Positions 11,500 to 47,964 of a DNA stretch of 64,000 nucleotides are shown here, one piece after another. Numbering within the stretch: the first letter of the stretch is position 1; each line of letters begins with the position of its first letter. Below the pieces are notes generated by a model. It was not told the origin of the DNA, ran no database searches, and was given only the letters and a program-made list of their open reading frames with translations. Origin of the DNA: Lophium mytilinum (taxonomy: Eukaryota). The stretch spans positions 248,001 through 312,000 of the forward strand of contig MU004190.1 of the NCBI GenBank assembly GCA_010093605.1. The letters run 5' to 3'. The position numbers were made by a program, and so were the translations under genes.

Positions 11500-11810
11500 T
11501 TTGATTTGGAGTTGTTTGGGCGGTAGTTGATACCGTCTGAAGTGCTCTAGCAGTGTGAAATATTGAGACATAGGATGTCAAAAACTAGGGGTCTTAGATT
11601 GTATTGGGTAGATTTCGAGTCGTTTGGAGGCTAGTTGATACCGTGTGAAGTACCCTGGCGGCGCCAAAAACTGGGAGATAGGATGTTAAAGTTCGGGGAC
11701 TTAGATCGTGTTGTGTGAACTTGGGTGGGTCCAGCATACGTATGATACCTACTGTCTGAAGTCCCCTAGAGGCGCGAAAAAATGTAGGACAGGACGTCAA
11801 AAACCGCACG
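11500..11810 (+). repeat. Degenerate tandem array, about 3 units of ~108 bp (left array)
   Basis: TGATACCGT(C/G)TGAAGT...(T/C)AGGA(T/C)GT(C/T)AAA recurs, with cores at ~11533, ~11641 and ~11752. Confidence 0.85.
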
Positions 11811-13861
11811 CGATTTTATGTCTCTTCGAGTCGACTCTTCCTAGTTGCTTGTCTTTTCTCATATTTGAAGTTTTCTTTCTACCATGACTCGTCACAAATC
11901 CGTATACACTCATCTATCGCTGCCTGAAGCTCCTTGATACATTCTCAACGCTCCAGAGCTTGTTGATTGGGACAATTAGTAAGCTTTGCTATATACCTTA
12001 AGGACTAGCTTATGGAAGTATACACTCAGCTATGCTATTCGTCTTCCCAGATTCCAATAAGATGTCAGAGCACCACATGCAGTAGTAGAGCAGTGTACAT
12101 GGATCGATCACGAGACACTGTAATGTTCGTCCCTCATCGGTACTACTCTTTCCCTCAATTCCCAGTCTCCCTTGAAGAACGCTCAACACCTTTTCTAATG
12201 GCGCGCAGTGCCCTTCTCTAAGCCGAATTAAGCCCATTGGTCTTAACACTGGGAAGCATATAAGAAGTTGGTGGCTTAGACATACGCGTGATATGGTCGT
12301 CACGTCACTATGTCACCCGCGCCAGCCATCCCTCCATCCAGCTACTCCAATTCTCGCTCATCGTCAACATCACCATGCCTGTCCGATGTGGCATCGCTGT
12401 TCGTCTCCGCGCCTTTACCCAGCAGTGCTCATCAGAAGTACCAAGACATAGAGAGACCTGAAAACATGCAGCATCTACGATGCTACATCGAGTGCGCCAT
12501 GGGAAAAGCAAAGTCTCAGCCTCGACGACTATGGCGAGTACTATCTATCAACACCAGCATCAAACTTGTATAGAGTTGCGTGCGCGCGTATGCATCATCC
12601 GGATATAATGATCGGTGCAAATGAAGAAGACGTGGATCGAACCTACCAGACCTGCAACCAGTGCGCGGCCGAACGGCGGAGGCGAGCGATGCCGGTGAAA
12701 ACTGAGAAATGTTGCCCTTGGCCTGACCTCCCCCACAAACATTTCTCGCATGCAATTCCCCATTGATCGACTAAGCTAACCTGCCAAGAGATACATACCA
12801 GTGAAGATGCCATTCCAAATGGGAACTTCCAATCTCAACGATGACAATACCATCAAGCGTAACCAAGACTATTTTAAACGTTCTCTTTGAAGCTGTTAGG
12901 CTCCGAATGTTAAAGAATTTCTGTAGTAGTACGGATGGGACCCGCGAAGCGACAGAGTTCCGGAAACGAGGGAACCAAATGAAGGAGAAGGGAGTCTATT
13001 TCCCACGCAAGTAAGGCAGACCAAGTAATAGCTCTACATATATGAATGAGCGGAGGAGAAGAGAGTACTTGAGGGACCAAGATCTTATAGCGGACGATGT
13101 GCGCAGATGGAATGCTTGAGCTGTACCGAAGTTGTTCGGGGTCGTCCATATCAACACTACGTAGGGTAACGTCCTAGTATGCTGGTCAACAGCTTTCTAC
13201 CGACCCATTTTCAAAGGGCTTTGAAGCATCTCACACAGCGATGGAATAGTATGAACAGCTTTGGCGTTGTTCCGAGCTATATCTTTAACTTCTGCCTAGA
13301 CCTATACATCTTCGTCGACAGCCTGCTCGATACTCTTCGTCAGACATCTTCTCTTCTGATTTATGTCTTTTTCCACGCGACGGTTGTCACTTTCTTACCT
13401 CGCCGTGGCCTCTCCCACCTATCTCACATACATCCATACAAAACTTCCTATCGAGTTTTAAAATATCTTAACTCGGCTTCGTCACCAGACCATTCAGTCT
13501 TCTTCACATCTTGCATCTCCAACAGCTCACTCCCAATCGAACACCCTTCAAACTCCAGCATCTTCCACGCATCCTTCACTCCTCACCTCAACTACTTACT
13601 CCGCTTCTTGGACCTCACTTCCTGTAGCCTCTTCTTCCTACAACTTCATCTACTTGTACCTACCTCCGTCTACCACCTCTCTATCTGTATCACACTTTCG
13701 CCACTCTCTTCTCTCTTACAACGACCCTTCCAGTTCCTCGCCACAGGACCCTACCACTGCCCACTTCTCAATCACGTTTTCCCATCGTTCAACAATCCAC
13801 TCTGGACGAAGACAAATATTTCACGCCACATTTGAGGAGGAATTCAACCTCGCAGCCAGCC

Positions 13862-14545
13862 CTCCCGCCCGCCGGTCCTGCTACATCTACCGCCTCGCAA
13901 CGAGCCCGGAAACAGGCGCGCCAATTTCACGCCGAGGCCCCGTGGTATGCTCGGGTGGCCTAAAGTGCTGCCAATTCTGGGGAATTGGATGGTGCGGCGG
14001 AGAACCTGGCCAAGATCTTCAGTATCGTAGGGACTTCCATTCAGCCGCCTGACTACCGGCTGGTACGTAAATGCCAGGAGGACGACTTGAAAGAATCCCA
14101 GGTCATTTCCCTCTTAACTTCCGTGGACTGTGACGGGCAGGACATTGCACCGCACAATCGTAATTCTGTCGAAACCAACACACGTCCTAAACTTGTGAGA
14201 ATGCGGCTCGCCATCATCCGTGAGAAGCTCAACGGCAAACTCAAGGTGGTTCACATATTTACACATCGTGGACGAGGTGTTGGACAACTTTATCCCAACG
14301 ATCGAGCGAGGTTTGCAGGCTTGGAAGTTGAGGGATCGATGCAGCCCGCCGATCGTGAGGCCCCGGGGCAGCCTTTGATCATCCTACTCGATGGTCATGA
14401 CACGGTCGAACTGAAAGACAAGTCTAGTGCTGAGGTCGGGCAAATACATGACCACGAAATCATGTCAATTGAGACCATTCACGGATACCTTAGGCGGAAT
14501 AGCTGGGCAGAATTCAAGAGGAGAGTCAGAGAGTCGGGTAGATAG
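13862..14545 (+). pseudogene. Family A copy A1 (PemK/MazF-like, DUF6590-like domain), nonsense-disrupted
   Basis: Carries RLAIIREK...VVHIFTHRGRGVGQL...LKDKSSAEV...GYLRRNSWAEFKRR. An in-frame TAA at 13961 interrupts VA*SAANSGEL, which aligns with AEEAAASGTL of A4. No in-frame ATG upstream. Confidence 0.75.
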
Positions 14546-16373
14546 GCTAAGGAGCAAGCTCAGACGACCTAACAATGTAGCTTTATAGTAGCGCCCGCGT
14601 TTCCAATGGATGGATTAAGACGTTATTTTTCTATTTCTATAGACAGATGACGTTTTCCTAGGAATGTCTCCTAGCTTGACTTCCTTCCTAAAAATCTATT
14701 ACTTGTCTGGTGGAAACGCACGCTAGACAGGTTTTCAATGAGTCACACCGGACCTTCCCAGCAAGAGCTACTTCGAAGCTGCTAGCAGTTGCCTTGTTCA
14801 AATCTGCTACTTGTTTAGATGGTTTTTGAAGGCTTTCGCGGACGACACTTAGCTAGGCACAATGGTTTCCTCAAAACTTGTGTGCATGGAGCAATTTGTT
14901 CCAAGCAGCTACCAGAGCATGGACATGTGTCCATACTTCCTTTTCTACGATGTTTCCATGTGGCGACGCAGCTTTGCAAGTCGTTTTGACTCCTCCTCTC
15001 GAATCACTTTTTGTTTCTAATTAGATGTTTATTCCATCAATGTGAAAGGGCTACTCTGTCCATAATATCATTCTCCAAGCCTTGGGAGTCATTTTGAAGC
15101 ATCATGGTTAAGCACATCGGGCTTACTGATGCGCATTTCAAAGTGCGCAGCAATCCGGTGGCCGTATTTCATGGGCGTGGATTGGATCGATCGATTTGGT
15201 CAAAGATTAGAAATGATTGGACGAGTTGCGTTGAGTTTACTCGTATGCTTTGATCCATCAGTAGAGACCACAAGACAACCTAAAAAGGCTATAGTAAGGA
15301 GGAGATAAGATAGACTCTTGGGGTGACGCTACCCAAAATTCATGAATTCTCGTTTTCCAGTCCACTGGTGATGCAAAATCTACCAGGTTTTACATACTGA
15401 TTAGACTGAATGTGAAAGGGGGTAGTAGCGTCAAGCCAGGTGAGCTGCATCTAAATCTGCTCGCATTGCGTAGCTATTCGCGTACTGTCATACTAATCTT
15501 GATATATACTACGGTGCCCGCAAACTCGCTAAAATTCTGTACATGCATCGGTACGACCTGCTCTCAATTCTCATATCTAGTCATACGCCTCCTAAGGCTC
15601 GGTGTTCTCTAGCCTGTGGTGCATCTGTTGATATTGTATTTTTATTATGGCGCTAAACTCGACTTTCAGTTCAGAATCACGTAGGCGTCCATTCACGTAT
15701 GCGCCATGGATTTTACAAAACCATACCCAATATTCAAGAAGCTATCAAGTGGTCGCAGACTTGAGGACACTGCATTCCCCTCGACGAGTTGAAGCGGCGT
15801 TGAGCCGTATAAGTGAAGACAAAGGTTATCATTAACTCTTTCTAGCTATCGCGAGATGCTAATGAGTATTGGTTGTTGGCTTGTTCCAAGGAAATCAAGA
15901 TACTCTGGAGCTCGTGTGGCTTTAGCCTTTTTAGAATTATATCATAATCATACTTTTTAAGGGCTCGAGACATTTTCCGTCTAGAGTACAGAGTGTGACT
16001 AGTCCTAGTGCCAGGTTTGCCAAAATGCAAGCAAGAAACGAGACACTGCTTGCTGCCTTGCCAAATAAAAAGCAGAAGGTTTAAACTTAAGAAAAGAAGC
16101 AAGCTAGGAAGGCTGCCTTTACTAAGACATTGGTTACTCCACTGCCTGTTATACATCGTGATAACAGATCTCTGATCAAGCACGTCGAATATTTGCTCGT
16201 CACCAGCTGGAGCTCGGTGCTGGTACGCTATGCCTTCTAACCAGAAAAGCGGTGTATCGTGAGCGCTCCGAGGTGCAGTCCGCACAATGCGTGTGCGTAC
16301 AGCCACCATTAGTCACAGTGCCACGCATGCGATCCTGTAGCGGGTTGCGGTGGCGAACCCGGGTTCGCAGTGA

Positions 16374-17621
16374 CTAATCTCCATCTCTAGTCTCAACTGC
16401 TTGGAATGTGGAAACATATCCCATAGGAGAAGTCGGCGAAGACTTTGGAGGTTGCGCCGCGTTCTGTCCGAGACTGCGGCGGTATTCGTCTATCCTTCTG
16501 CGCCCCGGATCATCTGCTATCATGCTTACGCTGTCGAATGGCTTACTCGTATCAAACGAGAAGGTGTCGACCTCGGGTGGTGTCCCAGGACAGTCAGGCG
16601 GAAGGGGAAGGCAGTCATTGCTATCCAGCCACTTTTGTACGTTCGCTTGTTCATAGTCAAGAAGCCATGCCCCTTCTTCACCTCTAACGTAGCCATCGTC
16701 AGGGTGGTCCCCGAACTGCGAGTCTTGGTCCGGAGAAACCCATACTCCAAGCGCCTTTGCATCCTGTTTTGCCTGACGTAACGCTGCCTCGGCGGATATG
16801 ACCTCTCTGGTTATTCTCTGCCCTTCAACCACTTTGAGGCGGTCAAACTCTTCTTTCACCTCAAGGGCAGGGCGATTGCCCCGGGCGTTAACATAAGCTT
16901 TGCAGTCCCGGGTGTAATAGCGGTCTTTGTCGCTGAGCTTTTTTCGGGCCGACCAGTAGCGAAGCTGGTTTTCCTCCAGGTTTTTGCTCGCTTGCTTGTA
17001 GGTAAGTCCAGCCTTACTATATTTGACATCTGCTGATCCAGGACGAACCGGATGATAGCCCTCGGGAACGTATTTAGTCGAAGAAGTTTCATCCGACTGC
17101 GAAGGCAGTACCCCGTAGTTTACGAGAAGAGTTTCGAAAACCTTATTGGCATCAATTTGAAGGTCGTTCCATCGTTGGCGAGCTTCTTGGATGCAATTTG
17201 CAATCCCTTGACCCTCTACTTTCAATGTATGACACTCGTCTTCGTTCTTTGCAATTGTTTTTCGGAGGCTTTCCACTTCGCGGGCCTCCTCGTCTGAGAG
17301 CTGGTGCTGGCTCATGGCCAACCTCCTTTCTAATTCTTTTAGAAATCGTACTTTCTTCGCGCAAGAAACGTAGAGGTCGTGCTCTTGCGTTGCTATTTGC
17401 TGCAGCTTGGGCTCTAGCTGCCTGTCGGTGTCTTTCGAGACCCGCCATGCCGTCAAAGCTTTTTCGAAAGCCACTACCAGCTCCGTTGGCAGACCGTCCG
17501 GGATTCCTTGAATTGTTTGGGCCATCTGCACAGCACTCCACGCACGCTCTGGAGTACCCCCCTTCTCCTCATTGTCCATTTTCAGTGTATTGCAGTGTTC
17601 AGGTTGCTTATCCAGGCCCAT
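16374..17621 (-). CDS. Family B copy B1: coiled-coil protein with DQDSQFGDHPDDGY motif
   Basis: Long open frame; first ATG at 17621 (MGLDKQPEHC). Clear paralog of 20379-21608, sharing GYxPVRP, DQDSQFGDHPDDGY, CPGTPPE(V/I)D and RRRIDxY. Confidence 0.8.
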   Translation of the reverse strand: MGLDKQPEHCNTLKMDNEEKGGTPERAWSAVQMAQTIQGIPDGLPTELVVAFEKALTAWRVSKDTDRQLEPKLQQIATQEHDLYVSCAKKVRFLKELERRLAMSQHQLSDEEAREVESLRKTIAKNEDECHTLKVEGQGIANCIQEARQRWNDLQIDANKVFETLLVNYGVLPSQSDETSSTKYVPEGYHPVRPGSADVKYSKAGLTYKQASKNLEENQLRYWSARKKLSDKDRYYTRDCKAYVNARGNRPALEVKEEFDRLKVVEGQRITREVISAEAALRQAKQDAKALGVWVSPDQDSQFGDHPDDGYVRGEEGAWLLDYEQANVQKWLDSNDCLPLPPDCPGTPPEVDTFSFDTSKPFDSVSMIADDPGRRRIDEYRRSLGQNAAQPPKSSPTSPMGYVSTFQAVETRDGD

Positions 17622-18521
17622 CCGAATCCTCGGCAGTGATGGCACGATATCTGCGAACGCGCTTCGGGCTATCAGCCAAACGTCAGACTGCAGTACAGGA
17701 GTATTTGGGAACTTACTCTTCAAGACCAATTCGCAGACTGGTATAAGCACAAACGATAGCCAAAGAACAGCAAAATAGTTAAAGAGACTAACTTTGCTCA
17801 ACCACGTTTAAAGAATTCCAACTAACTATTGGGGTGGGATAAATTGCGGTGGTGTGTGGGTGTGGTGAGCAAAAGGCAGCTTCCAGGGGCCGAAGCTGGC
17901 CATAACCTGTAGGGCGCTTATATAGTGTGGCGAGGTGGATTTTTACAGCCACATTCACCACTTGAGACGGCGTCACACGATGAAATCTTGCCTCAGAGAT
18001 ACCAGCGCTGCCCAAGATGACCATAGACCTTTCCCAGATCCTTTGAACATGCTCAAAGCATTCACAGTCACTAGTTCGACCCCTTTCACTGCCCAAATCT
18101 GCAAGTGTCACCCTCTAAAATGGCTTTTCTAGCCCTTTCGCTCTCTTGCATAACGGCACACACATGGTACATACACCAACCACGACACCGGAGCCTCGAT
18201 CGAGCATAAATTGCGAATCCCACCCATTCTGTAGGCCCTGCTATACACCAACACAATTCTATTATTATATGAATGCGATCTCGCACCGAAATGAATCGGG
18301 AAAGCGAGAGGAAACCAGAGAAGATAGAGGCATCGGATTCTAAGAAAGCATGCGAGGAGTATTGGAGTTCCTCTAAGACTTTGTCTAGCTATACTACCCT
18401 ACCTGAAGAGACTCCTTTATAATTGTTTCTTTTGGTAAGCGCGGTATTTAGTCCGATATAAGTCTATACCTACTAAATTAGTTTATAGGTGCAAAGCCCT
18501 TTTAGCCTATACTAAAGCCTG

Positions 18522-19388
18522 ATGTTGGTAGATAATACGCGAACAAATACCACGGAGTTGTCTTCTAAAGCCCTAAGATAATAAAGAGCCTCTACGGTTC
18601 TCTCAGCTAGTATATGGAGAACGGAGTCTGCCCTAACTAATTTGCTAACTCCTAATACGACTGCACTAATAGCCCCCCATTAAGCCGGTTTATACTCTTA
18701 AGCCCCCGTAGGACTAACGGCTAGTGGGAACTAGATCCGGCCGCTACTAGTGGTAAGAAAAAAGCCACCGTTCTATTGCATACTAGTTTTGTGGGAGGTT
18801 TAGAGGGTACGGGACGTTACTGCAGCCGGCGATTAGAACGGGGACGTGAAAAATATGGCCTTTATATTTAAGGCCGACATGAAAACTACCCGGCCGGGCA
18901 TTAAGCGGGGGTGTTAAGAGGAAGACTTAGTCCCGGGGTTGTTTATTAGTGTCTTGCTTGCAGTAGACTGCAGCAAGTAGATAATCAAGCCGAACATTCC
19001 TAACCTGGTGCAAGGCAATAATTGGATGGGCTATGTTAAGGTACGCTTCGGCATAGTCCGATAGCAGAACGGACTGGGTAGATTGACCGTAACTCCTTGT
19101 TACACGCACTCCGGTTGAGGGATTGGCCGTTTATCGGCAGAGCGTCAAGCGGAGTATGTTAAGCTCTAGGTCCAGACTGATGAGAAAGAGGACGGGCGAG
19201 AGGACTGCCATTTTGTTGAACTTTAAAATAAGAAATTTGATATGAAGGAGCAGTTACATGTGCGAGTTGTGGAGAAAATTGACTACGAGATAATGCTTAT
19301 CGAGCGCATTGAAAGTAATCTCGCCCCAGAAAGCTGGGAGATTTACAAGGCTCTAGTCGATACATCGCCTGACATCCTGGCCGAGTGA
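18522..19388 (+). pseudogene. Family A copy A5, RIP-destroyed (absent from ORF track)
   Basis: A single frame reads GC*EEDLVPGLFISVLLAVDCSK*IIKPN...KVRFGIVR*QNGLGRLTVTPCYTHSG*GIGRL...NLAPESWEIYKAL. Stops at 18915, 18978 and 19116 sit where A1 has Q, Q and R. Start at 18522 is tentative. Confidence 0.85.
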
Positions 19389-20378
19389 GCTCACTTTAGT
19401 CAACATGTTGAAGGAGCTATGCATCTGCACCATGTGTAGTAAGATGCTATAACAGCTACATACGATCATGCCTAAGAAGACATCAGATCTGCAGGCAGCT
19501 TTCGACATTCTGCTTGCTCTTCTCGACGTGTTTCACAGCCACAACGTAGGAAATGCTTTGTGACATTGTACACTATTCAATTATTCGAGAGGAATGTTCG
19601 TTGATGACGGCATTTGTTAAAGTTTCAGGAATTGTCGTTGAGTAATTGGCGTGTTAGATGGATCGTCAGAGTGGATCCATATCACTAAAAACTCAACTTA
19701 AACTGGCATCAGCTGTTTTGTGGTGCGTGCAAAATATGATTGCTTCAAGTGTAGTAGTTTCTGTGACATGCAAACATATCAATCAATCTTTTGATTAGAT
19801 TAGAAATCTCTTCATTGGTGAGCAGATCGCGTGACCACTGTTGGTAAATAACGAACAAACTGAAGCAAACATGGGCAAGCTCTTGGATTTTTTGTCAGGC
19901 GGTCGGCACTGGTATTGCAGAAACTCGTATTAAGTCAGCCTTGCTCGCACTCCAAAACCATCCACTTGCCATCAAATCACATGCAATTACATACAGCGGT
20001 AATATCTTGTTTTCTAAAAAATTGCAAATAGCCATATAGTTTATGATCCCAGGTCGACAATCGTGCCATCTGCATACCTTCAGTGTCTTTCACAGCTTAC
20101 ATCAGAATTATGTATCTGGGCGACTATGGCTAGAATTGCTAACGAGCGAGCAAGAACTAGATGCTTTCTTCTTGATCAGAATAAATAGAGTGCCAAATTC
20201 GAGAAAACGAACAAAAAAGGAAGGCTCTGTCCACACGCTGTCTGCCACTACCCGTCACGCCTTGGATACAGCGGCCTCTCAGCAGGCCCGCCTGGTTTGT
20301 AGGTTTCGCCAGCTCGGGCGTGGTGCTTACGTGCTACGTCGTCGAAAAGGTCGGCGAAGAATCTAAATTCCGCGGCCC

Positions 20379-21608
20379 CTATCGCCTAACAAGTTCGTTG
20401 TACCTATCGATTCTCCTTCGATCTGCACCCTCAGCCACCGCACTCACACTATCGATAGGCTTGTTAGTGTCGAAAAAGAACTCATCGATTTCCGGCGGAG
20501 TACCAGGGCATTCGTGCGACAGTGGGCCCTCTTCCATTTTCATCCATTTCTCGATCTTTGAACGATCAAATTCCGAGACCCATGCTCTCTCGTGATTCTC
20601 TGAATAGCCGTCATCAGGGTGATCCCCAAATTGCGAGTCTTGATCGGCAGGTACCCAAACTCCAACAACCTTAGCGTCCTTCTTAGCAGTTTGCAACTCG
20701 GCCTCTGCTTCCCTAATCTCCCCAGCCAGCTTCGTCCCGTTGACGAGATAAGAGAAATCGAATTCCTTCTTGAGTTCCTCGACACAACGACTCCTGGGAG
20801 CTTGGACGCAGTGCCTAAGGTCCTGCTCATAGAACTCCCTATGGTCTTGGAGCTTTTTCTCCGCAAACCAAAGCTTCCGCCGTTTCTCATTCAGATTCTG
20901 AGTCGCTTCCATCAGAGTAACTCTGGTAGCCTGAGATTCTGCGGATGTTATCTGTGATGCCTGGGGGCGAACAGGCCTGTAGCCATCTTGAGTGTCTGCT
21001 ATAGCTAGTCCTTCAGGAGTTCGTGCCGCTAAGAACCCAGGGCTGAGTAAGACGTCTCCAAGCGCTGCGTTGACTTCAACCTGGGCTTTTTCCCAGGCAG
21101 TTCGGGCTTGCTGAATGAGATGTTCCAGGCGCGCAATCTCTGTTTTGAGAGCAGCCCGGTCTTTTCTGTTTTGGATGGCGATTGCTTCGAGGTTCTTCCT
21201 CTCGCGACTGTCTTCTGCGGAGACCTCAGCTTCTCTACCGCCGGTTGACTCTTCAAATTCATCCAGTCTTCGTTCGCTCCGCAGGATAACGACGTACAGC
21301 TTTTGCTCTTCCCAGAAAGCCTTTTGTCGCCTGGGTTCTAAACGCGCCTCAATCGCCTCGAAATCCCGCCACAACTGCAGGGTGCTCAGAACTTTCGAGT
21401 GCAGATCTGCGGGCAGATTCAAAACTACTGAGCTCGGCACCGGTGAAACTGCTTCAGCTGGGCCTTTAGAGCAGTGTTGGCTTGCTTCGGCAGGCAGATC
21501 AGGATCTTCGGCCGCTGGATCACATTTCTCTGGCTGTTGCGAAGCTTTGGTCCTAGAAAGGTTTATGATGGAGGTACCGCTGTCGTCCACGGAATCTTCC
21601 AGTGCTAT
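20379..21608 (-). CDS. Family B copy B2 (may be non-functional: no ATG in first 226 codons)
   Basis: Open frame paralogous to B1, preceded by intron 21674-21609 (GTGAGT..CTAAC..TAG). First in-frame ATG is only at 20912. Confidence 0.65.
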   Translation of the reverse strand: MALEDSVDDSGTSIINLSRTKASQQPEKCDPAAEDPDLPAEASQHCSKGPAEAVSPVPSSVVLNLPADLHSKVLSTLQLWRDFEAIEARLEPRRQKAFWEEQKLYVVILRSERRLDEFEESTGGREAEVSAEDSRERKNLEAIAIQNRKDRAALKTEIARLEHLIQQARTAWEKAQVEVNAALGDVLLSPGFLAARTPEGLAIADTQDGYRPVRPQASQITSAESQATRVTLMEATQNLNEKRRKLWFAEKKLQDHREFYEQDLRHCVQAPRSRCVEELKKEFDFSYLVNGTKLAGEIREAEAELQTAKKDAKVVGVWVPADQDSQFGDHPDDGYSENHERAWVSEFDRSKIEKWMKMEEGPLSHECPGTPPEIDEFFFDTNKPIDSVSAVAEGADRRRIDRYNELVRR

Positions 21609-21859
21609 CTAGCAATGGTGGGCTTCATTGCGTTAGTCAAACTGCAACCAACACATGAGTTTCAGATTACTCACCTAAAGAAGACGGTCACACAGCTAGA
21701 GAAGGGTATAGTTAACACCCTTTAATTAGTAGCGCTTAACGCTAACTTGGTTTGAAAGACCTGGCTTTGTAGTAGGAAAAATTGGTGGTGTGTTGACAGT
21801 TGGAGATGTGGTGTGTGTGTGAGCAAACGGTAGGAGGTGGAAGCAATTTGTTCACGTGG

Positions 21860-22130
21860 TCATGTCTGACTTAAATACTCAACTGGGAAACCTGGAGAGT
21901 GAATTTGCGACGCAGACGTCGCCTACGATGTGTGAGGAGGGCTTCCCTGTCTAGTGAGGTAGCGTTCACTGCATTGGAGCGGCGGACAGGCCCCTGAATG
22001 ACCGATACACCATTCACTGCTACGTAACCCTACCCCCTCCGTATACATCAATGTAAGCGCACATAGACCAAAGACTTTACCAACGATATACCACCACCTC
22101 CACCACCCACACGCTTGTCTATCAGTATCT
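21860..22130 (+). promoter_or_regulatory. Conserved upstream block of family A / B-A bidirectional region
   Basis: GTGAATTT...CTACGAT...TCACTG.ATTGGAGCGGCGG...GATACAC.ATTCACT...TGTAAGC.CA.ATAG...GATATACCAC...CCACCCAC is shared with 24035-24300 and partly with 26750-26950. Confidence 0.6.
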
Positions 22131-22439
22131 ACGAATTCTCAAAACTTTTATCCCCCTCGAAGTCTGGTTCTTCATCGACGTAGCAACAACTCCCCTCTAT
22201 CCTTGGAAAGTTCTTCATCGACTTCTCGAAATCACCCACCCCAAGTTCCGGAACTGGAAGACTTCTATGACACCATCCCTCTAAGAATCCGAGAGTCAAC
22301 CAGTTCGTCCAGCAAGCTTGAGTCCTCAAACACGCTACCGTCTGCTAAGCTACACACGGTAACGAAACCAACTCGTACGACATCGTCTTCATCGCCTTCT
22401 AATGATCACGACGAGAGGATTGTTCCCCGATTTCTGACC

Positions 22440-23483
22440 ATGAACCCGCCAAAGTCCCGGTTGCGACTGACGAACGCAAAGATCACCAATCCTGTCACCA
22501 GTATCCAGACGCCGTCGTCACTAAGCTACTCTGCAGCTGTAACTAGGTCGCTGACATCCACAGCCGACGCGGAGAGCTTGACAGGACCTCAACGCACGCA
22601 GGACAACGATAGGAGCTTTCCCACGGTCAGTGAAGCCCACTTGGTTCCAAGAAACTCGGATCACGGAAGCCATGGGGTTTCCGAGAGCTTGCCATCTCCC
22701 TTATCACCTCCTATAACGATGCCTGCGAACGTCCAGAGCATGTTAAACCAATCCTTGTCTGCTCGATCACGGCCCGGGAAAGCAGCTCGGATCAAGGCGC
22801 GAACCAGGGAGCTCCAGAAGCTCTCTTCGTGGACACACAAGGCAACTTCTTCACAACAACCCTCTCTTCATCCGTCGTCATATGATCAGGCAACCCCCAA
22901 GTTCATTCGATGCATTGAAGATGCAGCTGTGGAGGCAGCGGTTTCTGGAATACTGCTTTCCACAGACCCAAGCGCATGGGACTTGAGTGAAATTGAGACC
23001 CACGGTTCCAGAATTGAGGATTTCGACGTAGGAATGGTCATAAACTTTATCATGATGACCATCTGCGCGAACGGAGGCCTGATGGCTGGAGATCCTGGTG
23101 TAATATTGACTCAGCAAGGCCTTAAGCTTTTCAAGCATCGGTTTGGGTTGATAGTGCAAAAGCAGGGGAACACAATGGACGTTGTTCCCATGTATACGCA
23201 TAGAGGACAGGGGATTAGCCATTTGGAGCCCTCCACATGGAGCAGATATGCATCTCTAGGGGTGAAAGGGAAAGCAATTGATGCAGACCGGTACGCCCCA
23301 GGGCCTCGGTTGCTCTTCGACGATGACTTGTCCTTCAAGCTGAAGGACAACTCGTATGCAAGAGTTTCGCAACTATATACGATCGACTTCGGCAGGAAGA
23401 CGCCCCTTCTTTGCAACGAAGAGATAATGGGCCGTCTTACGGATGAGTCTTTCGCGGAATTGAAGCGTCGTTGCGGAGTATGA
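22440..23483 (+). CDS. Family A copy A2 (PemK/MazF-like, DUF6590-like C-terminal domain), 347 aa
   Basis: ATG 22440 (MNPPKSRLRLTNAKIT); KHRFGLIVQK...VVPMYTHRGQGISHL...DNSYARVSQLYTIDF...GRLTDESFAELKRR. Intronless. Confidence 0.85.
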   Translation: MNPPKSRLRLTNAKITNPVTSIQTPSSLSYSAAVTRSLTSTADAESLTGPQRTQDNDRSFPTVSEAHLVPRNSDHGSHGVSESLPSPLSPPITMPANVQSMLNQSLSARSRPGKAARIKARTRELQKLSSWTHKATSSQQPSLHPSSYDQATPKFIRCIEDAAVEAAVSGILLSTDPSAWDLSEIETHGSRIEDFDVGMVINFIMMTICANGGLMAGDPGVILTQQGLKLFKHRFGLIVQKQGNTMDVVPMYTHRGQGISHLEPSTWSRYASLGVKGKAIDADRYAPGPRLLFDDDLSFKLKDNSYARVSQLYTIDFGRKTPLLCNEEIMGRLTDESFAELKRRCGV

Positions 23484-24607
23484 ACTGCAGTTTGAACAGG
23501 TCGTGAGTAGACCACCGGGATCCATCGACTAAGGATCCTAATTACCTGACTATAGGCTGTGTGATATTGTTGGAGACTGAACGGGCTTATACTCAACGAC
23601 GTTAGAGTAATGATATTATTGGCTAGTTTGTAAGCTTCATATGTCTTTTGGCACATATCTGTATCAGGGTCAGATTTTTTGGCTACTAGATCTATTCCCA
23701 AGGCGTCAACGAACATATTTTTCTCCCCTGTGTACCTTGTCTCGTCCCTCCACGTCGCTCATCTCATGTGCTCTTATAAGACTATTTAAACCAGCTTTGC
23801 GATGTGTCTCGAGTATCATCATGATGCTTTTCGCCTCTTTTTCAACGGGGAGGCGGATAAGTCTCACTCTGCAAAGTAGACTGACAGTAAGATAATCGAA
23901 CTCGAATTGTTTTGCTGGAAGTTCAGACTAGTGGAGTTCTATTTGCCTCGAGGGGCCAAACGGCAAACTGTGGCCATTGATAGAGAAGTAATTGGACAAC
24001 CCCTGCTCGTGGTGTCACCACTCGCTTTTTCGTAAAATACCTGGGAGAGACTCCGAGGAGTGAATTTAGAACGTACGCTCCGGCTACGATCTGCGACCGG
24101 GGAACTTTCATTCACTAATTGAAATAATCACTGAATTGGAGCGGCGGGCGCTAGGTGTCGAGATATGCGATACACAATTCACTTCGCTGCTATGCAGCGC
24201 TAAACTTCCTAAAAAGCATTGTAAGCACATATAGCGTCCCCTCTACCTGTGTCTTTATGAATGATATACCACTACGTCTACCACCCACCCCCTTCGTCTA
24301 CCAAGCGCTCCGCACTTTCACTACTTCCTCGAGAATCCACTTCGAAATCTCATCCTTCAACGATTAATTAAGAGCACCTACCCTCTTTCCACCCACTAGT
24401 TCCCCAAGGACCACCACCCCCAATCCACCACTTCGAGGTTCCATTCCAACACCCGCATCGAGTTATTATTCCTCAACGACTCAGAACCACCGTCTACACC
24501 CTATCATTTTGTAGAAGACGGTCTCTTAAACCCCACCTCCTCGAGTTCCTGTATCCCGCTGGTTTCTCTCACCCCCTGAAGCTGTCAGGGACTGCTTTTA
24601 CGACAAC

Positions 24608-25651
24608 ATGCCGATGCGACTGGTGAACAGTAAGATCACCAAGACTGCTCCCAGTAGTAACCAAGCTTCATCCTTTCGAAGCTACTCCGCAGCTCTAGCC
24701 GAGCCGATCACTTCTGTGCAAGACGAAGACTTAGAGTTCCCCGCAGTTGAGGAAGCTGATGGTGCAGTACAAAGCTCCGAATGCAATAGCGCAAAGCTTT
24801 CTGAGAACACGAAACCACCAGAAATAAACCCTACGCAGATGCCGCTTGCTGTGCAGAGAATCTTTTGGCACTCTTCCAACATACCGCGAAAGTATGGCAG
24901 CGCAACTCGCAGTGCTAATCGAAATAAAGAGCTCAAACAGCTCACCACGTGGATGGACGAACCAAGCTCTTCGGCTACGGCCCTAGGCCTTCCAAGTTCG
25001 TCGCGACAGGTAGCGCAACCACAGACTTCCGGCCTTCAGTCCAATTTCACCTCGCCAACCCCTGAGCTCATTCGCCGAATTCAGAGAGCAGCTGAGGCGG
25101 CCGTGGGTTCTGGCACATTGCTTTCAACCCTGGCGAGCGCTTGGGACCTCACCGAGTTCCACGCGAATGCCCCTAAGATTGAAACTTTCAAGGCTTCAAT
25201 GGTTATAAATTTCACTATGAAAGTCCTGTGCGATGATCCGAGGGCCAAGGTTGGAGATCGGGGTATCGTCCCTACGGAACAAGGGGTCATGCTCTTTAAA
25301 CAACGCTTTGGAATCATACTCACGATGCATGAGAACGGCTTTACGGTTGTACCCCTATACACCCACAGGGGCTCCGGAATCAGCCATTTGCATCGATCTG
25401 AGTGGCACAAGTATGCAGCAATAGGGCTAAAGGGGAGAGATCCACCTTTTGATACATACGCGCCAGGACCCCGCTTACTTCTCGACGAAAATGCGTCATT
25501 CGATATTAAGGGAAGCTCGTACGCTAGACTTAATCAGCGCCACACTATTGACTTTGATCAGAAGACCCCGCTCGATGGGTATGAAGCCGTTGTGGGATGC
25601 CTCAGCAAGGAGTCGTTCGAGGAGTTGAAGCGGCGCTGTGCAGAGGTGTAG
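24608..25651 (+). CDS. Family A copy A3, 347 aa
   Basis: MPMRLVNSKIT...SYSAAL; KQRFGIIL...VVPLYTHRGSGISHL...SSYARLNQRHTIDF...GCLSKESFEELKRR. Confidence 0.85.
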   Translation: MPMRLVNSKITKTAPSSNQASSFRSYSAALAEPITSVQDEDLEFPAVEEADGAVQSSECNSAKLSENTKPPEINPTQMPLAVQRIFWHSSNIPRKYGSATRSANRNKELKQLTTWMDEPSSSATALGLPSSSRQVAQPQTSGLQSNFTSPTPELIRRIQRAAEAAVGSGTLLSTLASAWDLTEFHANAPKIETFKASMVINFTMKVLCDDPRAKVGDRGIVPTEQGVMLFKQRFGIILTMHENGFTVVPLYTHRGSGISHLHRSEWHKYAAIGLKGRDPPFDTYAPGPRLLLDENASFDIKGSSYARLNQRHTIDFDQKTPLDGYEAVVGCLSKESFEELKRRCAEV

Positions 25652-27138
25652 AGGTGAGTAGATATCAAGATCTTCTAAGGCCGGAAGAAGGCCTGTTGGT
25701 GGCGATCCTGTATGAGTACTTTTCAGGGCGGCTGTTGAGACATCGTTGTTGTTTAAGTATCTGAGGCATCTCCAACGGCGGGTACAGTGTCAGTTACAGC
25801 TTGCTTCAAAGGCATTCGCCCACGATTTTGGCTAGAGACGAGAGGGGTTCTAACTTTGGAAACGTAAACTTTTGAATATAAGGTTCACGTTCTGGAAGAC
25901 TCGTTAAGATAGCGTTTAACTTAAGATAATCCTGCCTCTTCTACGTTAATCGTGATGATCTTTCATCATTCCAGAGCTTACAAACAATCCACGAATTCTC
26001 TTTGATGTCCATCCGCTCCCACCATCGCTTATATCCTTGTCTCTGCTGCAGAAACATAATCTTTACTCACCTTTGAATTCGTGTGATATCAAAACCTATC
26101 CCTTGAGAAATGGCGTTGATAAGAAAGTGCTAGGACAGATTCTAGGCACTCATTCTCCGCTTGCTCCAGTCAAGCGATCTAAAATGGAGCTTTGGACACA
26201 TCATATCTTCTGCTAGTACATCAAACCAGGTGCAATCTGATTTCCTCAGAGAGTCGATATTTGAAGATAAGTAACGGCAAACCAGCTTGATTGCTTATTA
26301 GGTTGTGCCTATTTGAATATTGGGAACACTCTCGCGTTGCCTAGATCGCATCAATAGACCGTAATCAAGCCATAATACGTCCTCGTCGGCGAACATACCA
26401 TTGTCAATCTTTGTTCGTGATATTGAGTACTATGGCCCTAGACCGGAGGCCTTTTCCTACTAGCTAGATAGCTTTGTGAGCAACTACATAAGAATATAGG
26501 CCGTGCGAGAGTGGTTAAAGGTTTGCTTACCTTTCAGCAAGTATAAACGTATGCCTATCCTATACTGTGGAACCTTTCACGTATTACTAGACCACAAAGA
26601 GCTCTATATGAAGGCAGCTTTGTTGAATGAATCGACGATCTTTGTTTCAGACTGTACTCAAATTGTGCAGATAGGCTATACATATAGCTGTATGTGAAGC
26701 TATTCGCGAAGTCTTTCTATTATGCTACTACCTGCCGCGTCTAAGTGTTTGGGAGGGGGTTGAATTTGTCGAAAGCTCATCTTATAGAGGTATCAGGTCT
26801 TCTTCCATTAAACTTGGCCCGCGCTCGCTCACACATTCACTCGAGAGCAAGTTCCGAGGAGTCAGCTCGGCCGTTCTAGCTACTTTCACTAATGACACTC
26901 TAAAGGAGCGGTCTGCGAGCCCTAGAATGCGCGGGATACAATTCACAATACAGTTTTTATTTGATCAAGCCATCATTTACAAGTAGGGCAATCTTTTCTC
27001 ATTCACTACTGCAATTGGTCCACCATCAACACCACGCCCACCACCACCGGCACCACCCATATCGATTTCTTCAGGGTTTCGAACACCCACAACCCCTTCC
27101 TTTCTCGCACAGACGGATCTCTCAGAAGCCGGGCTGCA

Positions 27139-28407
27139 ATGCAGCCAGCTTCCTCTAGGACAAAATCTGTGCAAGATAGCAACAAGATAAAAAGTCAGGA
27201 GGTTTCCACTGATCATTCCTACGCAGCGAGTACAGTAACGAGTTCAACAAAGAGCTGCCATCCAGTCATATCACAGGACTATAGTCCAAGTGTCACGAAA
27301 CCACGGCTGCGCCTTTTGAACACAAAACTCACAAAACCCGAGAAAGTCAAACGAAGCACCACACCGACAAGCTACTCCGCTGCAGTCTCCGGATCTCGGG
27401 TAATCCCTAACTACCCGAATAGCTTGCCTGCCACAAATGCAGTACAAGAGGAAACGTCTACTGCCATTGCAGACTCTCCAACGACGCCGCTCCAAGTATC
27501 CGGCTCAAGCTATGGGTTTCGCACCAGCTTAAGCTCGAATCAGGCAGCAGAAGTGGACCCTCTTGAGACTGCGCCAGCGGTTCAAACTCCGCTTAGCTAT
27601 GCCTCTGTAACACGGCCCCAGCTTGGGGATGCCGGCCAAAGTCTTGAGCTTAAATTAAGCATTCAACGCGGAAAGGCCCTGACAAAGCTCAAGACCTGGA
27701 CAAAGACGAGCGACTCAACCACGAACACTGGCATACCAGGCCCACAGCAGAATTTGATACCCCGCTCGAGGTTCAAAAACCGGCCAATTCCAGACAACAT
27801 TCGGCGATTCCAAAAGGCCGCTGAGGAGGCTGCAGCATCAGGAACGCTGCTCTCATGTTTTGGAGTAGCCGGAACCTCTGCCCAGGATGGCCCCAACATT
27901 GGGGAGTTCGAGCCACGCATGGTGATTAGCTTTACCATGAAGGTACCTTGCACGGATCCAAGGCTCAAACTTGGGGATCCCGGGGTCATCCTCACGAAGG
28001 AGGGTCTCATGCTGATTAAGCAACGTTTCGGGCATGTCGTACAGAAGTCCGCAAACAGCTTAAAGGTAATACCATGGTACACCCATGGGGGTGAGGGGAT
28101 CGCACATCTCTCATATTTGGCGCGTAGAGACTATGCGGGGACGGGTGTGCAGGGAATCATACCTAAGTCACTTAACTTTGCACCAGGGGATCGGCTGTGG
28201 GTGGAAGAAGGGCCGTTGTTCAATCTAGGAGAGCGCTCTTACGCCAGGGTGTCCGAGTATCATATTATTAACTTCGGCACCTTGACTCCCTTTGATAGAG
28301 TTGTCCCGGCGGGCTATTTGACCCCACAGTCTTTCGAAGAGTCGATTCGGCGCCATGAAGAGGCACTGGCCCGCAAACAGGCTCGTCTACAATCCGAGGT
28401 TGAGTAG
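27139..28407 (+). CDS. Family A copy A4, 422 aa
   Basis: RLRLLNTKLT...SYSAAV; KQRFGHVVQK...VIPWYTHGGEGIAHL...RSYARVSEYHIINF...GYLTPQSFEESIRR. Confidence 0.85.
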   Translation: MQPASSRTKSVQDSNKIKSQEVSTDHSYAASTVTSSTKSCHPVISQDYSPSVTKPRLRLLNTKLTKPEKVKRSTTPTSYSAAVSGSRVIPNYPNSLPATNAVQEETSTAIADSPTTPLQVSGSSYGFRTSLSSNQAAEVDPLETAPAVQTPLSYASVTRPQLGDAGQSLELKLSIQRGKALTKLKTWTKTSDSTTNTGIPGPQQNLIPRSRFKNRPIPDNIRRFQKAAEEAAASGTLLSCFGVAGTSAQDGPNIGEFEPRMVISFTMKVPCTDPRLKLGDPGVILTKEGLMLIKQRFGHVVQKSANSLKVIPWYTHGGEGIAHLSYLARRDYAGTGVQGIIPKSLNFAPGDRLWVEEGPLFNLGERSYARVSEYHIINFGTLTPFDRVVPAGYLTPQSFEESIRRHEEALARKQARLQSEVE

Positions 28408-30021: not shown

Positions 30022-30753
30022 CTACGAGTCCAACCCCAGGAACTCAACCGACGACGTCTCCGACGCGTCATCATCCTCCTCCTCCTCCCCGCTCTCAATC
30101 GGAGCAGTGGCCGACCACGCCAAAACCGGCGCGAATCTAAAGGCGGCGTCTGGGCACTTCCCGATCCGCGAGCCGAAAACTTTCCTCAGATCTATGCCCT
30201 TCGAATTGGAGCGGCGGCGCGGGCTTGCTGAACGGGCTCTGGGCGAGGTCGGGACACTTCCGAGAGGAGACGGAGATGCTGGTGGTGGTGCTGGTTCTGG
30301 CGCTGATTCGAAGGCTGGTGCAGCAGACATGGATGGTGGGGTGGTGTCGAACTGGTCGAAGGTCTCCAGACAGTGGTAGGTTGGCGGCAGGGCGGGCGCG
30401 GTGACGGGCTGAATCTGGTAGTGCTGGGGATGAACGCACTCGCGGCCGGCTGAATCGAACCAGCAGTGACCGGGTCCGTTGCACCATAGGCTTAGAGGCT
30501 TGGGGGCGGCCATCCAGGCGAGTAGAGACTCCAGGAGAGAGGGCGGACGCGGACGCGGGTTCCGGTGGAGGTCTGGGAGTGGACACTCCCCGCCCGCTGA
30601 TTCGAACCAGCAGGCTCCAGGACCGTAGCAAACGAGGGTTGGTGGTCGCGGCGCTGGCGTGGGTGGCACGAAGCCGAAGATGTCTCTGAGGAATTCTGCG
30701 TGCTCGCAGGGCTTCTCGAGGGCGCAGTTGATCGCGGTGGTCATGTCCAGCAT
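30022..30753 (-). CDS. Hypothetical Pro-rich protein with duplicated Cys motif
   Basis: GC-rich 243-aa ORF from ATG 30753 with two copies of LxCxGPGxCWFxSAGxEC. Confidence 0.6.
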   Translation of the reverse strand: MLDMTTAINCALEKPCEHAEFLRDIFGFVPPTPAPRPPTLVCYGPGACWFESAGGECPLPDLHRNPRPRPPSLLESLLAWMAAPKPLSLWCNGPGHCWFDSAGRECVHPQHYQIQPVTAPALPPTYHCLETFDQFDTTPPSMSAAPAFESAPEPAPPPASPSPLGSVPTSPRARSASPRRRSNSKGIDLRKVFGSRIGKCPDAAFRFAPVLAWSATAPIESGEEEEDDDASETSSVEFLGLDS

Positions 30754-31385
30754 GATGGCGATGAGGGTGGTTTGAAGGGACTTTTGGAGGCAGAACGGCG
30801 CGAGACGAGAAGCTGAAGAACAGGTCGGACGATGATGTTGAGGAGTTGGAAAGACTGAAGACAGAAGGTGATGATATATACTCTAGCCAACAATAGAGCA
30901 ATTGACAATAGAATCAATAGCGAGTTGAAGCAACAACGGCTCTGGTATCAACAATAGAGACATTGGTATTGTGAGCCATTATGGTGACCGAAAACGGTTA
31001 GCGTGGCTGGTGAAAAAGTGAAGTGGTAAATTTCTTGGAGGCCGGTTGATATCACGTGCGGTGGAGCACGATTGACGGCGAGTGCAGCCAGATCCGATGC
31101 AGCGCCTTTGACACTCATATTTGATACTAATTTACGACAGATCGTTGCAGCATTCGATTTCTTGACTCCATAATGTGATGACTTACGAAGCGTCTTAAGA
31201 TCCTAGGCTCTCCTTTTTTCGCTTTACCGACCATGATATCCTGCTAAAGGTCTCCTGGCGCATTGGCAATTTTGAGACAGAAAATGTAATTTTTACAGGC
31301 GCTAGATTGGACCTACGGTTCTGCAGCCCGCTCCTGCATCTCACGATCGCGGCGAAAGCTCGGCGTCACGGCTTCGAGGCTGAAA

Positions 31386-32767: not shown

Positions 32768-34895
32768 TCATATATACCATCTTGATCTACTCAGCCTCCC
32801 TAAATTGCCATTTTCTGCACTCCCAATTGCAATAGCGCCTATGGGCGAATTGGAGCAGACATCTCCAATCTTCACATGCGTTCCTTTCAACAGCGCCGTT
32901 CGCTCTAGCCCACTCAGCGTGGTTCCACCAGTCGGAACCGGCAGATAAGGGTTCAAGAACGTGTGTGAAGACACGTAGCCAAGGATGTCCGGTGCGAGGG
33001 TCATGTACCGCAATATAAGACCAGCCAAAGCCGCAATCTGCAGGATGACCGAGCATATCAGAAGAATAACCATCCATACCCAATCGCACCGATACTTCTC
33101 TGGCGTTTTATGGCTAAGCAGGGCGCCGGACGCGTCGAAGAAAAGGGCGGGATAAAGCTGAGACTCTTCGCCTCCTAGGTTGGAATATTGCAGTGATGTC
33201 AGGTTTGACGGAAGCTTGCCAGAAAGAGCGGTCGTGGCAAAGGTTGACTGCCAAAATGTGTTGATAAGTATCTCAAGGCGCTGGCCTAGTACATCCGGAG
33301 AAAGGCGCCAGAGATCAACGTATGTGTAAGTCGCCCCAATGAAGTCGTTGGGATCAGACATCCATTTCTCCATATTCGTACTTCCGCGTGCACCTGCAGA
33401 TCCGACGTCAAAATTGTCGGTCGTGGGGAGGTAGCCGAAGCTGTTGAGTAGCTGGTGTTGTGCTTGAGTTTCAACCGTGGTATTGAATGGCTCCGAGACG
33501 TTTCGCATTTTGTCCGCCCGGCAAGACGTTCCGTTGCAACTAATGGCTGTTTCGACGAGGTTGAAGCCAACGACGCACTGGGCAAATGTTTGTTTCATAT
33601 CCGAGATGGACTCGGCTGTGGCATACGTGGAGTCCGAGCTACCAAGGATGATATCACATGGCCAGTTCCGGCAGCCAGTTTTGGAGTCCCCGGGCTTGAG
33701 CACCCAGGTTTCAGCTCCGGTGATATTGACCGTGCTTGCACTCACTTGCTTGTTGCTCGTGCAATTCACATCAAATTGCCGACTCTTGATATTGAATGCC
33801 GATGTTCCTGTAGCAGAGATATTTGCAATTGGAATGCCAATGAGCGAGGAGTAAGTTGTAACGTTAGTACTTTGGTCCAGTAATCGCCAACCGTCAATGA
33901 GATCAGTGTCAGGCAATGATGTCAATGGCGGAACTTTGACATTTCCCCACAGATCCATCGGAGTGTCTTGGTACTTTCCGGAGCTCAAGAGAGAGGCCAG
34001 GAAGATGGAAGTATATGTCGACCGAGCACTATTCATGGCACTAGCACCCATAAGAAACGAATCCAGGAACGCGTCCGGCTCTACGTAGCTAACGTTTCCG
34101 TTCGTTTGGATGATTTCCGTCGAGGTTTTAAGCAATCGGAGGGCTGCCTGGCCCCCGAGCGGTGAGAGAAACCACACCAGAGTCAGCGGAAGTCCGATGA
34201 AACTCAAGGCTTTGAGGCCTATAAATCGCTCCAATGCGGCGAACATGGACTGACATCCAACGAGTTGTTCTAGAGTCTAGCAGAGTAAGCACATGGCCTC
34301 CAAACACTAAACTCATACTTACAGCAATCTCAACACCTCGCTCCGAGAGATAGAGGCCAATGGCTCTGAAGCATCTTCCCATCAACCCAGCGAAAACGAT
34401 TGGGTATATGGTAGGGCTCAACAAGATGACGCGGACCAGATGAACGCCATAAGGCGAGACTTCATGGCCGTCTATTTTCCAAGAAAGAAGGGCAAGAACT
34501 AGGTTTAGTAGTCAACACGCTAATCTTCGTCTGCGACCCCTTAAGGTTTGCATACCAATGAAGGCCAAAGGTGTAAAAGCTAAGATAGTTTCACAGAAAA
34601 TCCAGAGCACGTGCCACGGTTTGAACTGTCTGAGCTGCTTCGATTGGAAAGTCCTCTTGTGTTCTAAGGGCAAGTCGCCGCCTTTGAAAGAGTCGCCGTA
34701 CGCGGTGCTTCCGCCGTACGCGGTGCTTCCCTCGAAAGTGTCGCCCGGGTAGAACGGCGTTGATGATTCTGCAATAGACGGCTCTGATACGGGCGCATAA
34801 CCTTTGCTGTTGGAGGTAGAAGTGGATGTTTGACGATGATAGGGCTGTCGAGGATACGACAAGAGGCTGATATCGTCCGAGACCCTGGAATCCAT
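32768..34895 (-). CDS. Uncharacterised fungal multi-pass membrane glycoprotein, 3 exons
   Basis: N-terminal TM segments (SPTIYPIVFAGLMGR; LSPLGGQAALR), a luminal region rich in N-X-S/T (DLWGNVKVP, YSSLIGIP), and a C-terminal TM with PDILGYVSS and ERTALLK...GDV. Confidence 0.8.
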
Positions 34896-47532: not shown

Positions 47533-47964
47533 TCTCCGGGCTGTTTAAAGTTTGTTCACGTCGGAGGGGTGGTGAGAGATATTCGCAGAGATGAGATGCG
47601 GGGCAAAGGTTTCCTACTCTAGGTACAAACTTAAAAAGCAAGCTGAGAAGCCTTACTATCGTTCTATGAAAACAAAGTATTTCTAAAAAAGTAAGTAAAC
47701 CTAAGTAATACGCAAAATATTGAGAGGGATTTAAGTATCAAATAATTCTATTATAAAGTATATAGAGCTTTAAAGATATGTTAAGGGATAGTTCAAGTGC
47801 CCACTAAGTAATGGGAGTCGACTCCCTATAAACCTAGCCATTGTTGGAACGACAGCAAGCCTCATGCGGGGTAATCGCGCGAAGATAGACCTCTGGACGC
47901 TTGGAACATTCATAATAGCCCACTAGGATACCATCCACAGTAACTAGCGACACTCGTAGTCAGA

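Follow-up and report, generated by a model that had tools for sequence, protein, structure and literature searches.

In a 64,000-nucleotide stretch of Lophium mytilinum DNA (assembly GCA_010093605.1, contig MU004190.1, forward-strand positions 248,001 to 312,000; hereafter the window, numbered from its first letter), roughly 15 kb (13.9–28.4 kb) were found to hold five copies of one gene family and two copies of another, referred to here as A and B. The C-terminal domain of A was assigned, from structural models, to the MazF/PemK fold, and A was placed by profile comparison with DUF6590 (PF20233), a fungal protein family. The reading to which we give somewhat better than even chances is that of an old, lineage-specific tandem cluster of DUF6590/MazF-fold genes, whose products probably bind or cleave RNA, with B as a co-duplicated orphan neighbor.

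Copies were located by a tblastn search of five long open reading frames (ORFs) against the whole window, together with a six-frame hidden Markov model (HMM) scan using A and B profiles. Neither search found an A or B copy anywhere in the 64 kb beyond the following set, in which a short relic recognized from a DNA-level match is also entered (lengths of proteins in amino acids, aa).

13964-14545, + strand: A1, an open 193-codon MazF-fold domain frame behind an in-frame TAA
15781-15818, + strand: short relic, similar to the last coding stretch of A3/A2 ('ELKRRC' codons) and tail-to-tail with B1
16374-17621, - strand: B1, an intact 415-codon ORF
18825-19367, + strand: A5, a pseudogene with the MazF-fold domain in one frame
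20379-21608, - strand: B2, a 409-codon open frame with no early ATG
22440-23483, + strand: A2, intact, 347 aa
24608-25651, + strand: A3, intact, 347 aa, identical to public protein P0001
27139-28407, + strand: A4, intact, 422 aa, the same length as public protein P0002

The number, order, and orientation of the five A and two B copies were as given in the initial annotation of this DNA. Also in line with that annotation, the copies were strongly diverged: A2, A3, and A4 were 36–43% identical in pairs by tblastn (E values of 1e-47 to 6e-81) and 37–46% identical in a MAFFT alignment, and B1 and B2 were 37% identical over their full length (tblastn E value of 4e-72 over 380 residues) and 48% identical over the C-terminal 171 residues. 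Nonsense changes were present in some copies, A2 was intact, B2 possibly had no start codon, and A3 and A4 had no adjacent B, all of which had been stated beforehand. Both divergent B/A pairs had been described as less than 1 kb apart. This was correct for B2 and A2, which have a head-to-head spacing of 831 bp. For B1 and A5, the distance from the B1 ATG to the first detectable A5 homology is 1.2 kb, and the description applies only if a lost A5 N-terminal region is assumed.

The A proteins consist of a disordered N-terminal half of about 150–215 residues, S/T/P-rich in A2, followed by a C-terminal domain of about 160 residues, for which the MazF fold is predicted. When A2, A3, A4, and the A1 fragment were scanned against Pfam (hmmscan, E ≤ 1), no family was returned, PF20233 included (gathering score of 27 bits), and a word-index homologue search with A3 recovered only A3 itself. 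A profile of the four window A domains, run with HMMER exhaustively against 1.84 billion representatives, gave 34 matches at E ≤ 1e-3. Four of these were strong, namely A3, A4, the public gene model of A1 (P0004), and P0003, an outside protein of different origin that is 56% identical to A2. Thirty-two of the 34 matches were then scanned against Pfam (P0001 and P0002 were left out; P0004, the window's own A1 model, was included), and 22 of the 32 contained PF20233 at E ≤ 0.01. Alignment of the four window A domains to 18 PF20233-positive proteins using hhalign gave a probability of 99.7% and an E value of 1.1e-26 across 157 columns. In an Atlas feature search, the clusters nearest to A were DUF6590 clusters (0.95), and a PemK_toxin cluster scored 0.89. 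Judged from these profile comparisons, A belongs with DUF6590 as a divergent relative, too distant to pass the threshold of the Pfam model itself. A metagenome scan with the 4-sequence A alignment matched 49 patterns, of which 0 were confirmed.

The modeled region comprised residues 151–347 of A3, and residue numbers such as R83 refer to this A3 domain numbering. With 4 sequences, the AlphaFold2 model was unusable (predicted local distance difference test, pLDDT, of 50.9); with the 32-sequence alignment, pLDDT rose to 93.4 and the predicted template modeling score (pTM) was 0.87. Foldseek against the PDB gave MazF/Kid-type toxins and the type III toxin CptN in the 31 rows listed (ranks 1–49), with a best E value of 3e-3 and a probability of up to 1.00 among the matches listed. 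When the Foldseek candidates were aligned using VIA-align, all 50 entries listed were MazF/Kid-type, and the best was Staphylococcus aureus MazF (Z of 11.0, root-mean-square deviation (rmsd) of 2.5 Å, 103/114 residues). An unbiased search of 48,161 representative chains placed MazF/Kid-type chains at all of ranks 1–10 (Z of 8.4–10.8), and below them came CcdB (8.0), CptN (7.2), and the first unrelated chain (6.0). The structural match spans A model residues about 36–197 and covers MazF almost completely; beyond the MazF fold, A has a helix at the N-terminus and two insertions. These models support the assignment of the A domain to the MazF/PemK fold (CcdB/MazF superfamily), which we regard as the solid and useful result of this analysis. 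The earlier description of A as PemK/MazF-like, with an RNase-toxin fold, was thus upheld by the pLDDT 93.4 model, the ten top-ranked chains, and the arginine alignment given below.

At the level of sequence, the A profile had 0 matches to PDB sequences at E ≤ 10, and hhalign of the 32-sequence A alignment against 72 MazF sequences gave an E value of 2.8e-4 over 97 columns (MazF residues 5–107). Residue conservation was counted by column over the 32 aligned sequences, most of which are 15–29% identical to A3. Position 83 was Arg and position 107 was Gly in every sequence, position 102 was Thr or Ser in 32/32, position 81 was Lys in 30/32, and position 103 was His in 23/32. The cleavage-site residues of Escherichia coli MazF are named as Arg-29 and Thr-52 in PMC10864209. 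R83 was aligned with Arg-29 in both hhalign runs, and the equivalence of these two residues is supported by the alignments.

Three of the A loci were damaged. The A1 domain frame is preceded by the TAA at 13961–13963, has no ATG upstream in that frame, and keeps the K/R-x-R and T-H-x-G-x-G motif residues; the peptide upstream of the domain aligns weakly with the A3 linker (E value of 0.025). Public gene model P0004 (431 aa; window 12310–14545) contains the A1 domain letter for letter and joins upstream exons from several frames, splicing around the A1 stop and skipping some of the domain. This exon set is implausible and looks like an annotation artifact around a nonsense-interrupted gene. A1 itself is probably a pseudogene, or else its 5' end has been altered. 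A5 has its 7 in-frame stops (4 TAG, 2 TAA, 1 TGA) in 181 codons, with no frameshift needed, and its closest relative is A1 (E value of 4e-18, vs 1.4e-4 for A2). Indices of repeat-induced point mutation (RIP) for A5 were mildly RIP-like (TpA/ApT of 1.21, second index of 0.99, GC of 0.475) and similar in adjacent intergenic DNA, and they gave no clear RIP signature as the cause of its stops.

The third locus lies in the spacer between A1 and B1, where 22 of 25 bases at 15781–15805 match the last codons of A3. The score of this alignment was reached by 0/300 shuffles against A3 and by 2/300 against A2. A protein-level match of the 15781–15818 relic to A was not significant, and tblastn matches at 15085–15810 were collinear, weak, and each insignificant alone. 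The relic is probably the trace of a sixth A copy, and it hints at a still larger duplicated unit. When every frame piece of at least 8 residues was scanned with the HMM, no further decayed copies were found at E ≤ 3.

Almost no DNA similarity is left between the copies. By the NG86 method, A2, A3, and A4 differ by 0.48–0.65 nonsynonymous (dN) and 1.9–4.1 synonymous (dS) substitutions per site, and dS is saturated between B1 and B2. The duplications are therefore old, and purifying selection (dN/dS < 1) has acted on the intact copies. A maximum likelihood tree of 19 domains combined the 5 window copies, in which the A5 stops were written as X, with 14 outside proteins chosen from the matches. 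It grouped A1 with A5 (support of 98/98) and A4 with (A3,(A2,P0003)). A 6-residue insertion is common to A2, A3, A4, and P0003 and is absent from A1 and from most of the more distant DUF6590-type matches.

Two histories fit these relationships. A head-to-head unit may have been duplicated from B1/A5 to B2/A2, followed by single-gene copies, or a tail-to-tail unit A1+B1 may have been tandemly duplicated to give A5+B2 next to an A2-type array. Given the sister relationship of A1 and A5, a tail-to-tail A/B unit accounts for the tree no less well than a head-to-head one. A B/A pair as the unit of duplication, as proposed in the initial annotation, therefore stays plausible, and the head-to-head orientation claimed for it does not follow.

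The B proteins are distinguished by a conserved C-terminal segment, which is acidic (isoelectric point (pI) of 4.1 for B1 residues 291–385 and 4.6 for the B2 equivalent) and includes an invariant DQDSQFGDHPDDGY motif. The N-terminal half of B1 is coiled-coil-like, and public protein P0035 (401 aa) corresponds to B1 from its second Met, at 17582. The B2 open frame is collinear with B1 end to end, and its first ATG is codon 233, at 20912. Reading of the 5' leaders by eye gave one intron-like stretch in each.

17669-17716, - strand: B1 leader, intron-like stretch GTAAGT...CTGAC...TAG
21609-21674, - strand: B2 leader, intron-like stretch GTGAGT...TGACTAAC...TAG

The B2 frame begins directly after a TAG, which also ends the intron-like stretch. 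The B2 stretch lies at a position equivalent to that of the B1 stretch. Upstream of the putative intron, the B1 leader has a TATATAAG box and the B2 leader has a TATTTAAG box; both boxes appear TATA-like by eye, and a CA-rich run is common to the two leaders.

Searches of B against Pfam, PADLOC, and PDB sequences gave no significant family. The sub-threshold matches were coiled-coil look-alikes, namely ATG16 in Pfam (E value of 0.022), a JetC/MukB-like protein in PADLOC for B1 (0.035), and a CEP85 chain in the PDB (0.34); for A, PADLOC returned nothing. The Atlas model of B1 was poor (pLDDT of 0.58) and had helical hairpins as structural neighbors, and its Atlas feature neighbors were unnamed Ascomycota clusters (0.92), which serve as a lead only. 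Homologue searches with B1 residues 200–415 and with a B1+B2 profile each matched only P0035, which is B1 itself, and a metagenome scan with the B profile gave 595 pattern matches, none of which was confirmed. As far as these searches reach, B is an orphan protein with no detectable relative in the databases searched.

Upstream of the intact A genes, the pattern GGAGCGG-N(10-40)-ATTCAC was found. It has exactly 3 matches in the window, and at least 3 matches occurred in 0/100 shuffles.

21976-22017, + strand: GGAGCGG...ATTCAC element, 464 nt before the A2 ATG
24138-24182, + strand: GGAGCGG...ATTCAC element, 470 nt before the A3 ATG
26905-26946, + strand: GGAGCGG...ATTCAC element, 234 nt before the first A4 ATG

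The element is followed by a CCACCACCCA run. It is a candidate for a transcription-factor site shared by A2–A4, and its presence upstream of all three suggests common regulation. Since A3 and A4 carry it with no B nearby, the A promoter would be independent of the shared B/A spacer. A scan of the B2-A2 spacer for bacterial promoters and terminators found nothing, the models being bacterial and the host eukaryotic.

A separate observation concerns 22002–22439 (+ strand), where the A2 frame runs on without a stop for 146 codons ahead of its ATG and holds a local 28-nt direct repeat (22167–22194 and 22210–22237). This extension may be due to chance or may belong to a longer form that is non-ATG-initiated or spliced.

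In the preferred account, the A genes are divergent DUF6590-superfamily members in an old, lineage-restricted tandem cluster. Their domain retains K-x-R...[S/T]-H-x-G-x-G, with its Arg placed where the catalytic Arg of MazF sits, and the proteins would be intracellular, RNA-binding, and probably RNA-cleaving. A2–A4 are intact, have been under purifying selection, and could be co-regulated through their common upstream element; A5, the 15.8-kb relic, and probably A1 are decaying. B would have been duplicated together with an A gene, after which B1 stayed intact and B2 lost its ATG; any functional link between A and B would be conjecture.

Several points weigh against this account. Gene structures were inferred from ORFs and public protein models and are known here from sequence alone. 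A2–A4 have no Pfam match, so that their family membership depends solely on profile-profile comparison. The sequence link to MazF is weak, with hhalign probabilities of 41% for the 72 sequences and 0.4% when E. coli MazF was used by itself. In both hhalign runs, S/T102 aligns with MazF Thr-53 and Y101 with Thr-52. As S/T102 thus falls on Thr-53 and not on the catalytic Thr-52, a complete MazF-type active site is not established; a one-residue slip at the strand end may affect the Thr-52/53 placement. A common fold, here a modeled one, is no proof of RNase activity. Finally, dS is near saturation, so that dN/dS indicates merely a value below 1.

In a second account, A is a non-catalytic MazF-fold (SH3-like barrel) adaptor or regulator that binds nucleic acid or protein, and B is an unrelated coiled-coil gene caught in the duplicated segment. 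We consider this possible and rather doubtful. It would suit the one-residue offset of the Thr equivalent in the alignments; it has a precedent in CcdB, which scores Z 8.0 and is not a nuclease despite having the same fold; and it suits a B that resembles only generic coiled-coil proteins, below threshold. Against it, the conservation of K-x-R and [S/T]-H-x-G-x-G over 32 sequences looks like that of a catalytic or ligand site, the A Arg coincides with the catalytic Arg of MazF, and MazF/Kid-type nucleases fill the first ten ranks among the 48,161 chains.

A third account, which we judge unlikely, is a toxin/antidote or selfish module in which A is a MazF-type RNase poison that B neutralizes, with spore killing, allorecognition, or addiction as the outcome. 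The acidic C-terminal segment of B might block A in the way that the MazE tail blocks MazF, and A+B units would have been duplicated, with the B-adjacent toxin copies then decaying to leave antidote-only genes. Toxin/antidote systems can decay by loss of the toxin with the antidote kept, and the A copies nearest to the B genes (A1, the relic, and A5) are indeed damaged while B1 is intact. The MazF fold of A with its conserved Arg, the confinement of B to this cluster and its co-duplication with A, and the acidity of the conserved B segment (pI of 4.1–4.6) point the same way.

Against such a module, the A superfamily is widespread in fungi, whereas the searches turned up no relative of B, so that dependence on a B cannot be general among A-type proteins. 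Two intact copies, A3 and A4, have no B beside them, B2 lacks a start codon beside an intact A2, and the upstream element common to A2–A4 does not depend on B. Being old and under constraint, the paralogs do not form a young, fast-turnover array. Core genes flank the cluster with no repeat or mobile-element boundary found at 9–33 kb, and neither Pfam nor PADLOC gave a domain known from drivers, het genes, or antitoxins. Co-folding of two A2-domain copies with B2 residues 205–409 gave ipSAE values of 0.02 and 0.12 vs a mark of 0.34, in a single run without controls or own alignments that speaks neither for nor against binding. Among the papers listed in a literature search, none was found that links MazF to het, spore-killer, meiotic-drive, or allorecognition loci.

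The initial annotation had proposed B as the partner or antidote of A and a selfish or allorecognition role like that of Spok, wtf, or het loci. Neither proposal found backing here, since B has no relatives or recognizable domain beside a widespread A superfamily, the copies are ancient and constrained, and the flanks are housekeeping genes; neither was refuted. In its fullest form, the idea would make DUF6590 a eukaryotic branch of MazF endoribonucleases, one subclade of which gained B as a dedicated inhibitor with its acidic segment in the RNA groove. The result would be a two-gene toxin/antidote module on a fungal chromosome, duplicated as a whole and decaying by toxin loss, and it could underlie spore killing or vegetative incompatibility; we give this version slightly lower odds again.

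That A and B are non-functional, decaying remnants or annotation artifacts in a gene-poor stretch is very improbable: A1 and A5 are damaged, B2 has no ATG, and the splice pattern of P0004 looks arbitrary, but ORFs of 347–422 codons are still open in three A copies and B1 despite saturated synonymous sites, the model is supported by covariation (pLDDT of 93.4 with 32 sequences vs 50.9 with 4), the orthologue-like P0003 from another source is 56% identical, and the motif residues are conserved.

The tandem cluster of DUF6590/MazF-fold genes lies in ascomycete-type fungal nuclear DNA with a GC content of 0.45–0.57. Long ORFs outside the cluster encode a carboxyl transferase, COX15, Thg1, a Ras GTPase, Med13, and NOL10, and the last five are housekeeping genes that flank it. 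No repeat or mobile-element boundary was found at 9–33 kb of the window. Local direct repeats occur just outside either side of the cluster, one at 11503–11690 (80 nt, 78% identity, 108-nt spacing) and an unrelated one at 30437–30645 (62 nt, 73% identity, 147-nt spacing). A 602-codon open frame at 45736–47544 (- strand), 17 kb from the cluster, encodes another fungal protein of unknown function, which matches DUF7580 just below threshold (E value of 7.9e-6, 26.2 bits vs a cut-off of 27). Open frames of 865, 502, and 286 codons at 3709–6306, 32768–34276, and 30022–30882 (all - strand) contained no Pfam family at E ≤ 0.001; the 865-codon frame has a weak BTB-like match (E value of 0.011).

MazF-type RNases are regarded as toxins of prokaryotes. 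The functionally uncharacterized fungal family DUF6590 is found here to have a predicted MazF fold with the catalytic Arg in place, which offers a testable hypothesis for many uncharacterized fungal proteins, namely sequence-specific RNA cleavage dependent on the invariant Arg. The cluster presents intact, diverged, and dead copies side by side, together with a co-duplicated orphan neighbor for the question of a partner. If there is no RNase activity, it is merely a lineage-specific paralog cluster. No paper on DUF6590, PF20233, or fungal MazF-fold proteins was found in the open full-text literature, with subscription journals and database annotations outside the scope of the search, and the MazF-like fold of DUF6590 may already have been noted elsewhere.

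Among known systems, Spok, wtf, and het/vic loci resemble this cluster only in the general respect of being clustered, diverged paralogs with pseudogenes in a fungus. A and B share no protein domain with Spok, wtf, or het loci (Pfam at E ≤ 1 for A; sub-threshold coiled-coil matches only for B). Spok and wtf produce poison and antidote from one gene, whereas two families are present here. Unlike young, fast-turnover drivers, the cluster has a dS of 1.9–4.1 or saturated, a dN of 0.48–0.65 with no sign of positive or balancing selection, and no clear RIP signature.

DUF6590 proteins, like A, have a disordered N-terminus followed by a domain of about 150 residues with invariant K-x-R and G and an [S/T]-H motif. 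A2–A4 differ from them in an additional helix at the N-terminus and in an insertion of 6 residues specific to their clade, and they form a small clade with one outside relative (P0003) among the 1.84 billion representatives.

MazF, PemK, Kid, and ChpBK (PF02452) are bacterial type II toxins that act as sequence-specific endoribonucleases. A differs from them in its eukaryotic host and monocistronic genes, in two insertions that together make up about 50 residues and the long disordered N-terminal region, in having no Pfam-level sequence match, and in having no MazE-type antitoxin gene (no MazE-, AbrB-, or RHH-like gene was found). The only neighbor co-duplicated with A is B. It shares their fold, with Z of up to 11.0 and rmsd of 2.1–2.8 Å over 93–105 of 103–122 residues, and the MazF Thr-52/53 strand aligns with a hydrophobic strand and P-x-x-[S/T] region of A. 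The barrel fold is also shared with CcdB, a gyrase poison (Z of 8.0), and with the type III toxins CptN (7.2), ToxN (5.2), and AbiQ (5.0). All of these score below every one of the ten top-ranked MazF/Kid chains, and A is therefore closest to the MazF branch.

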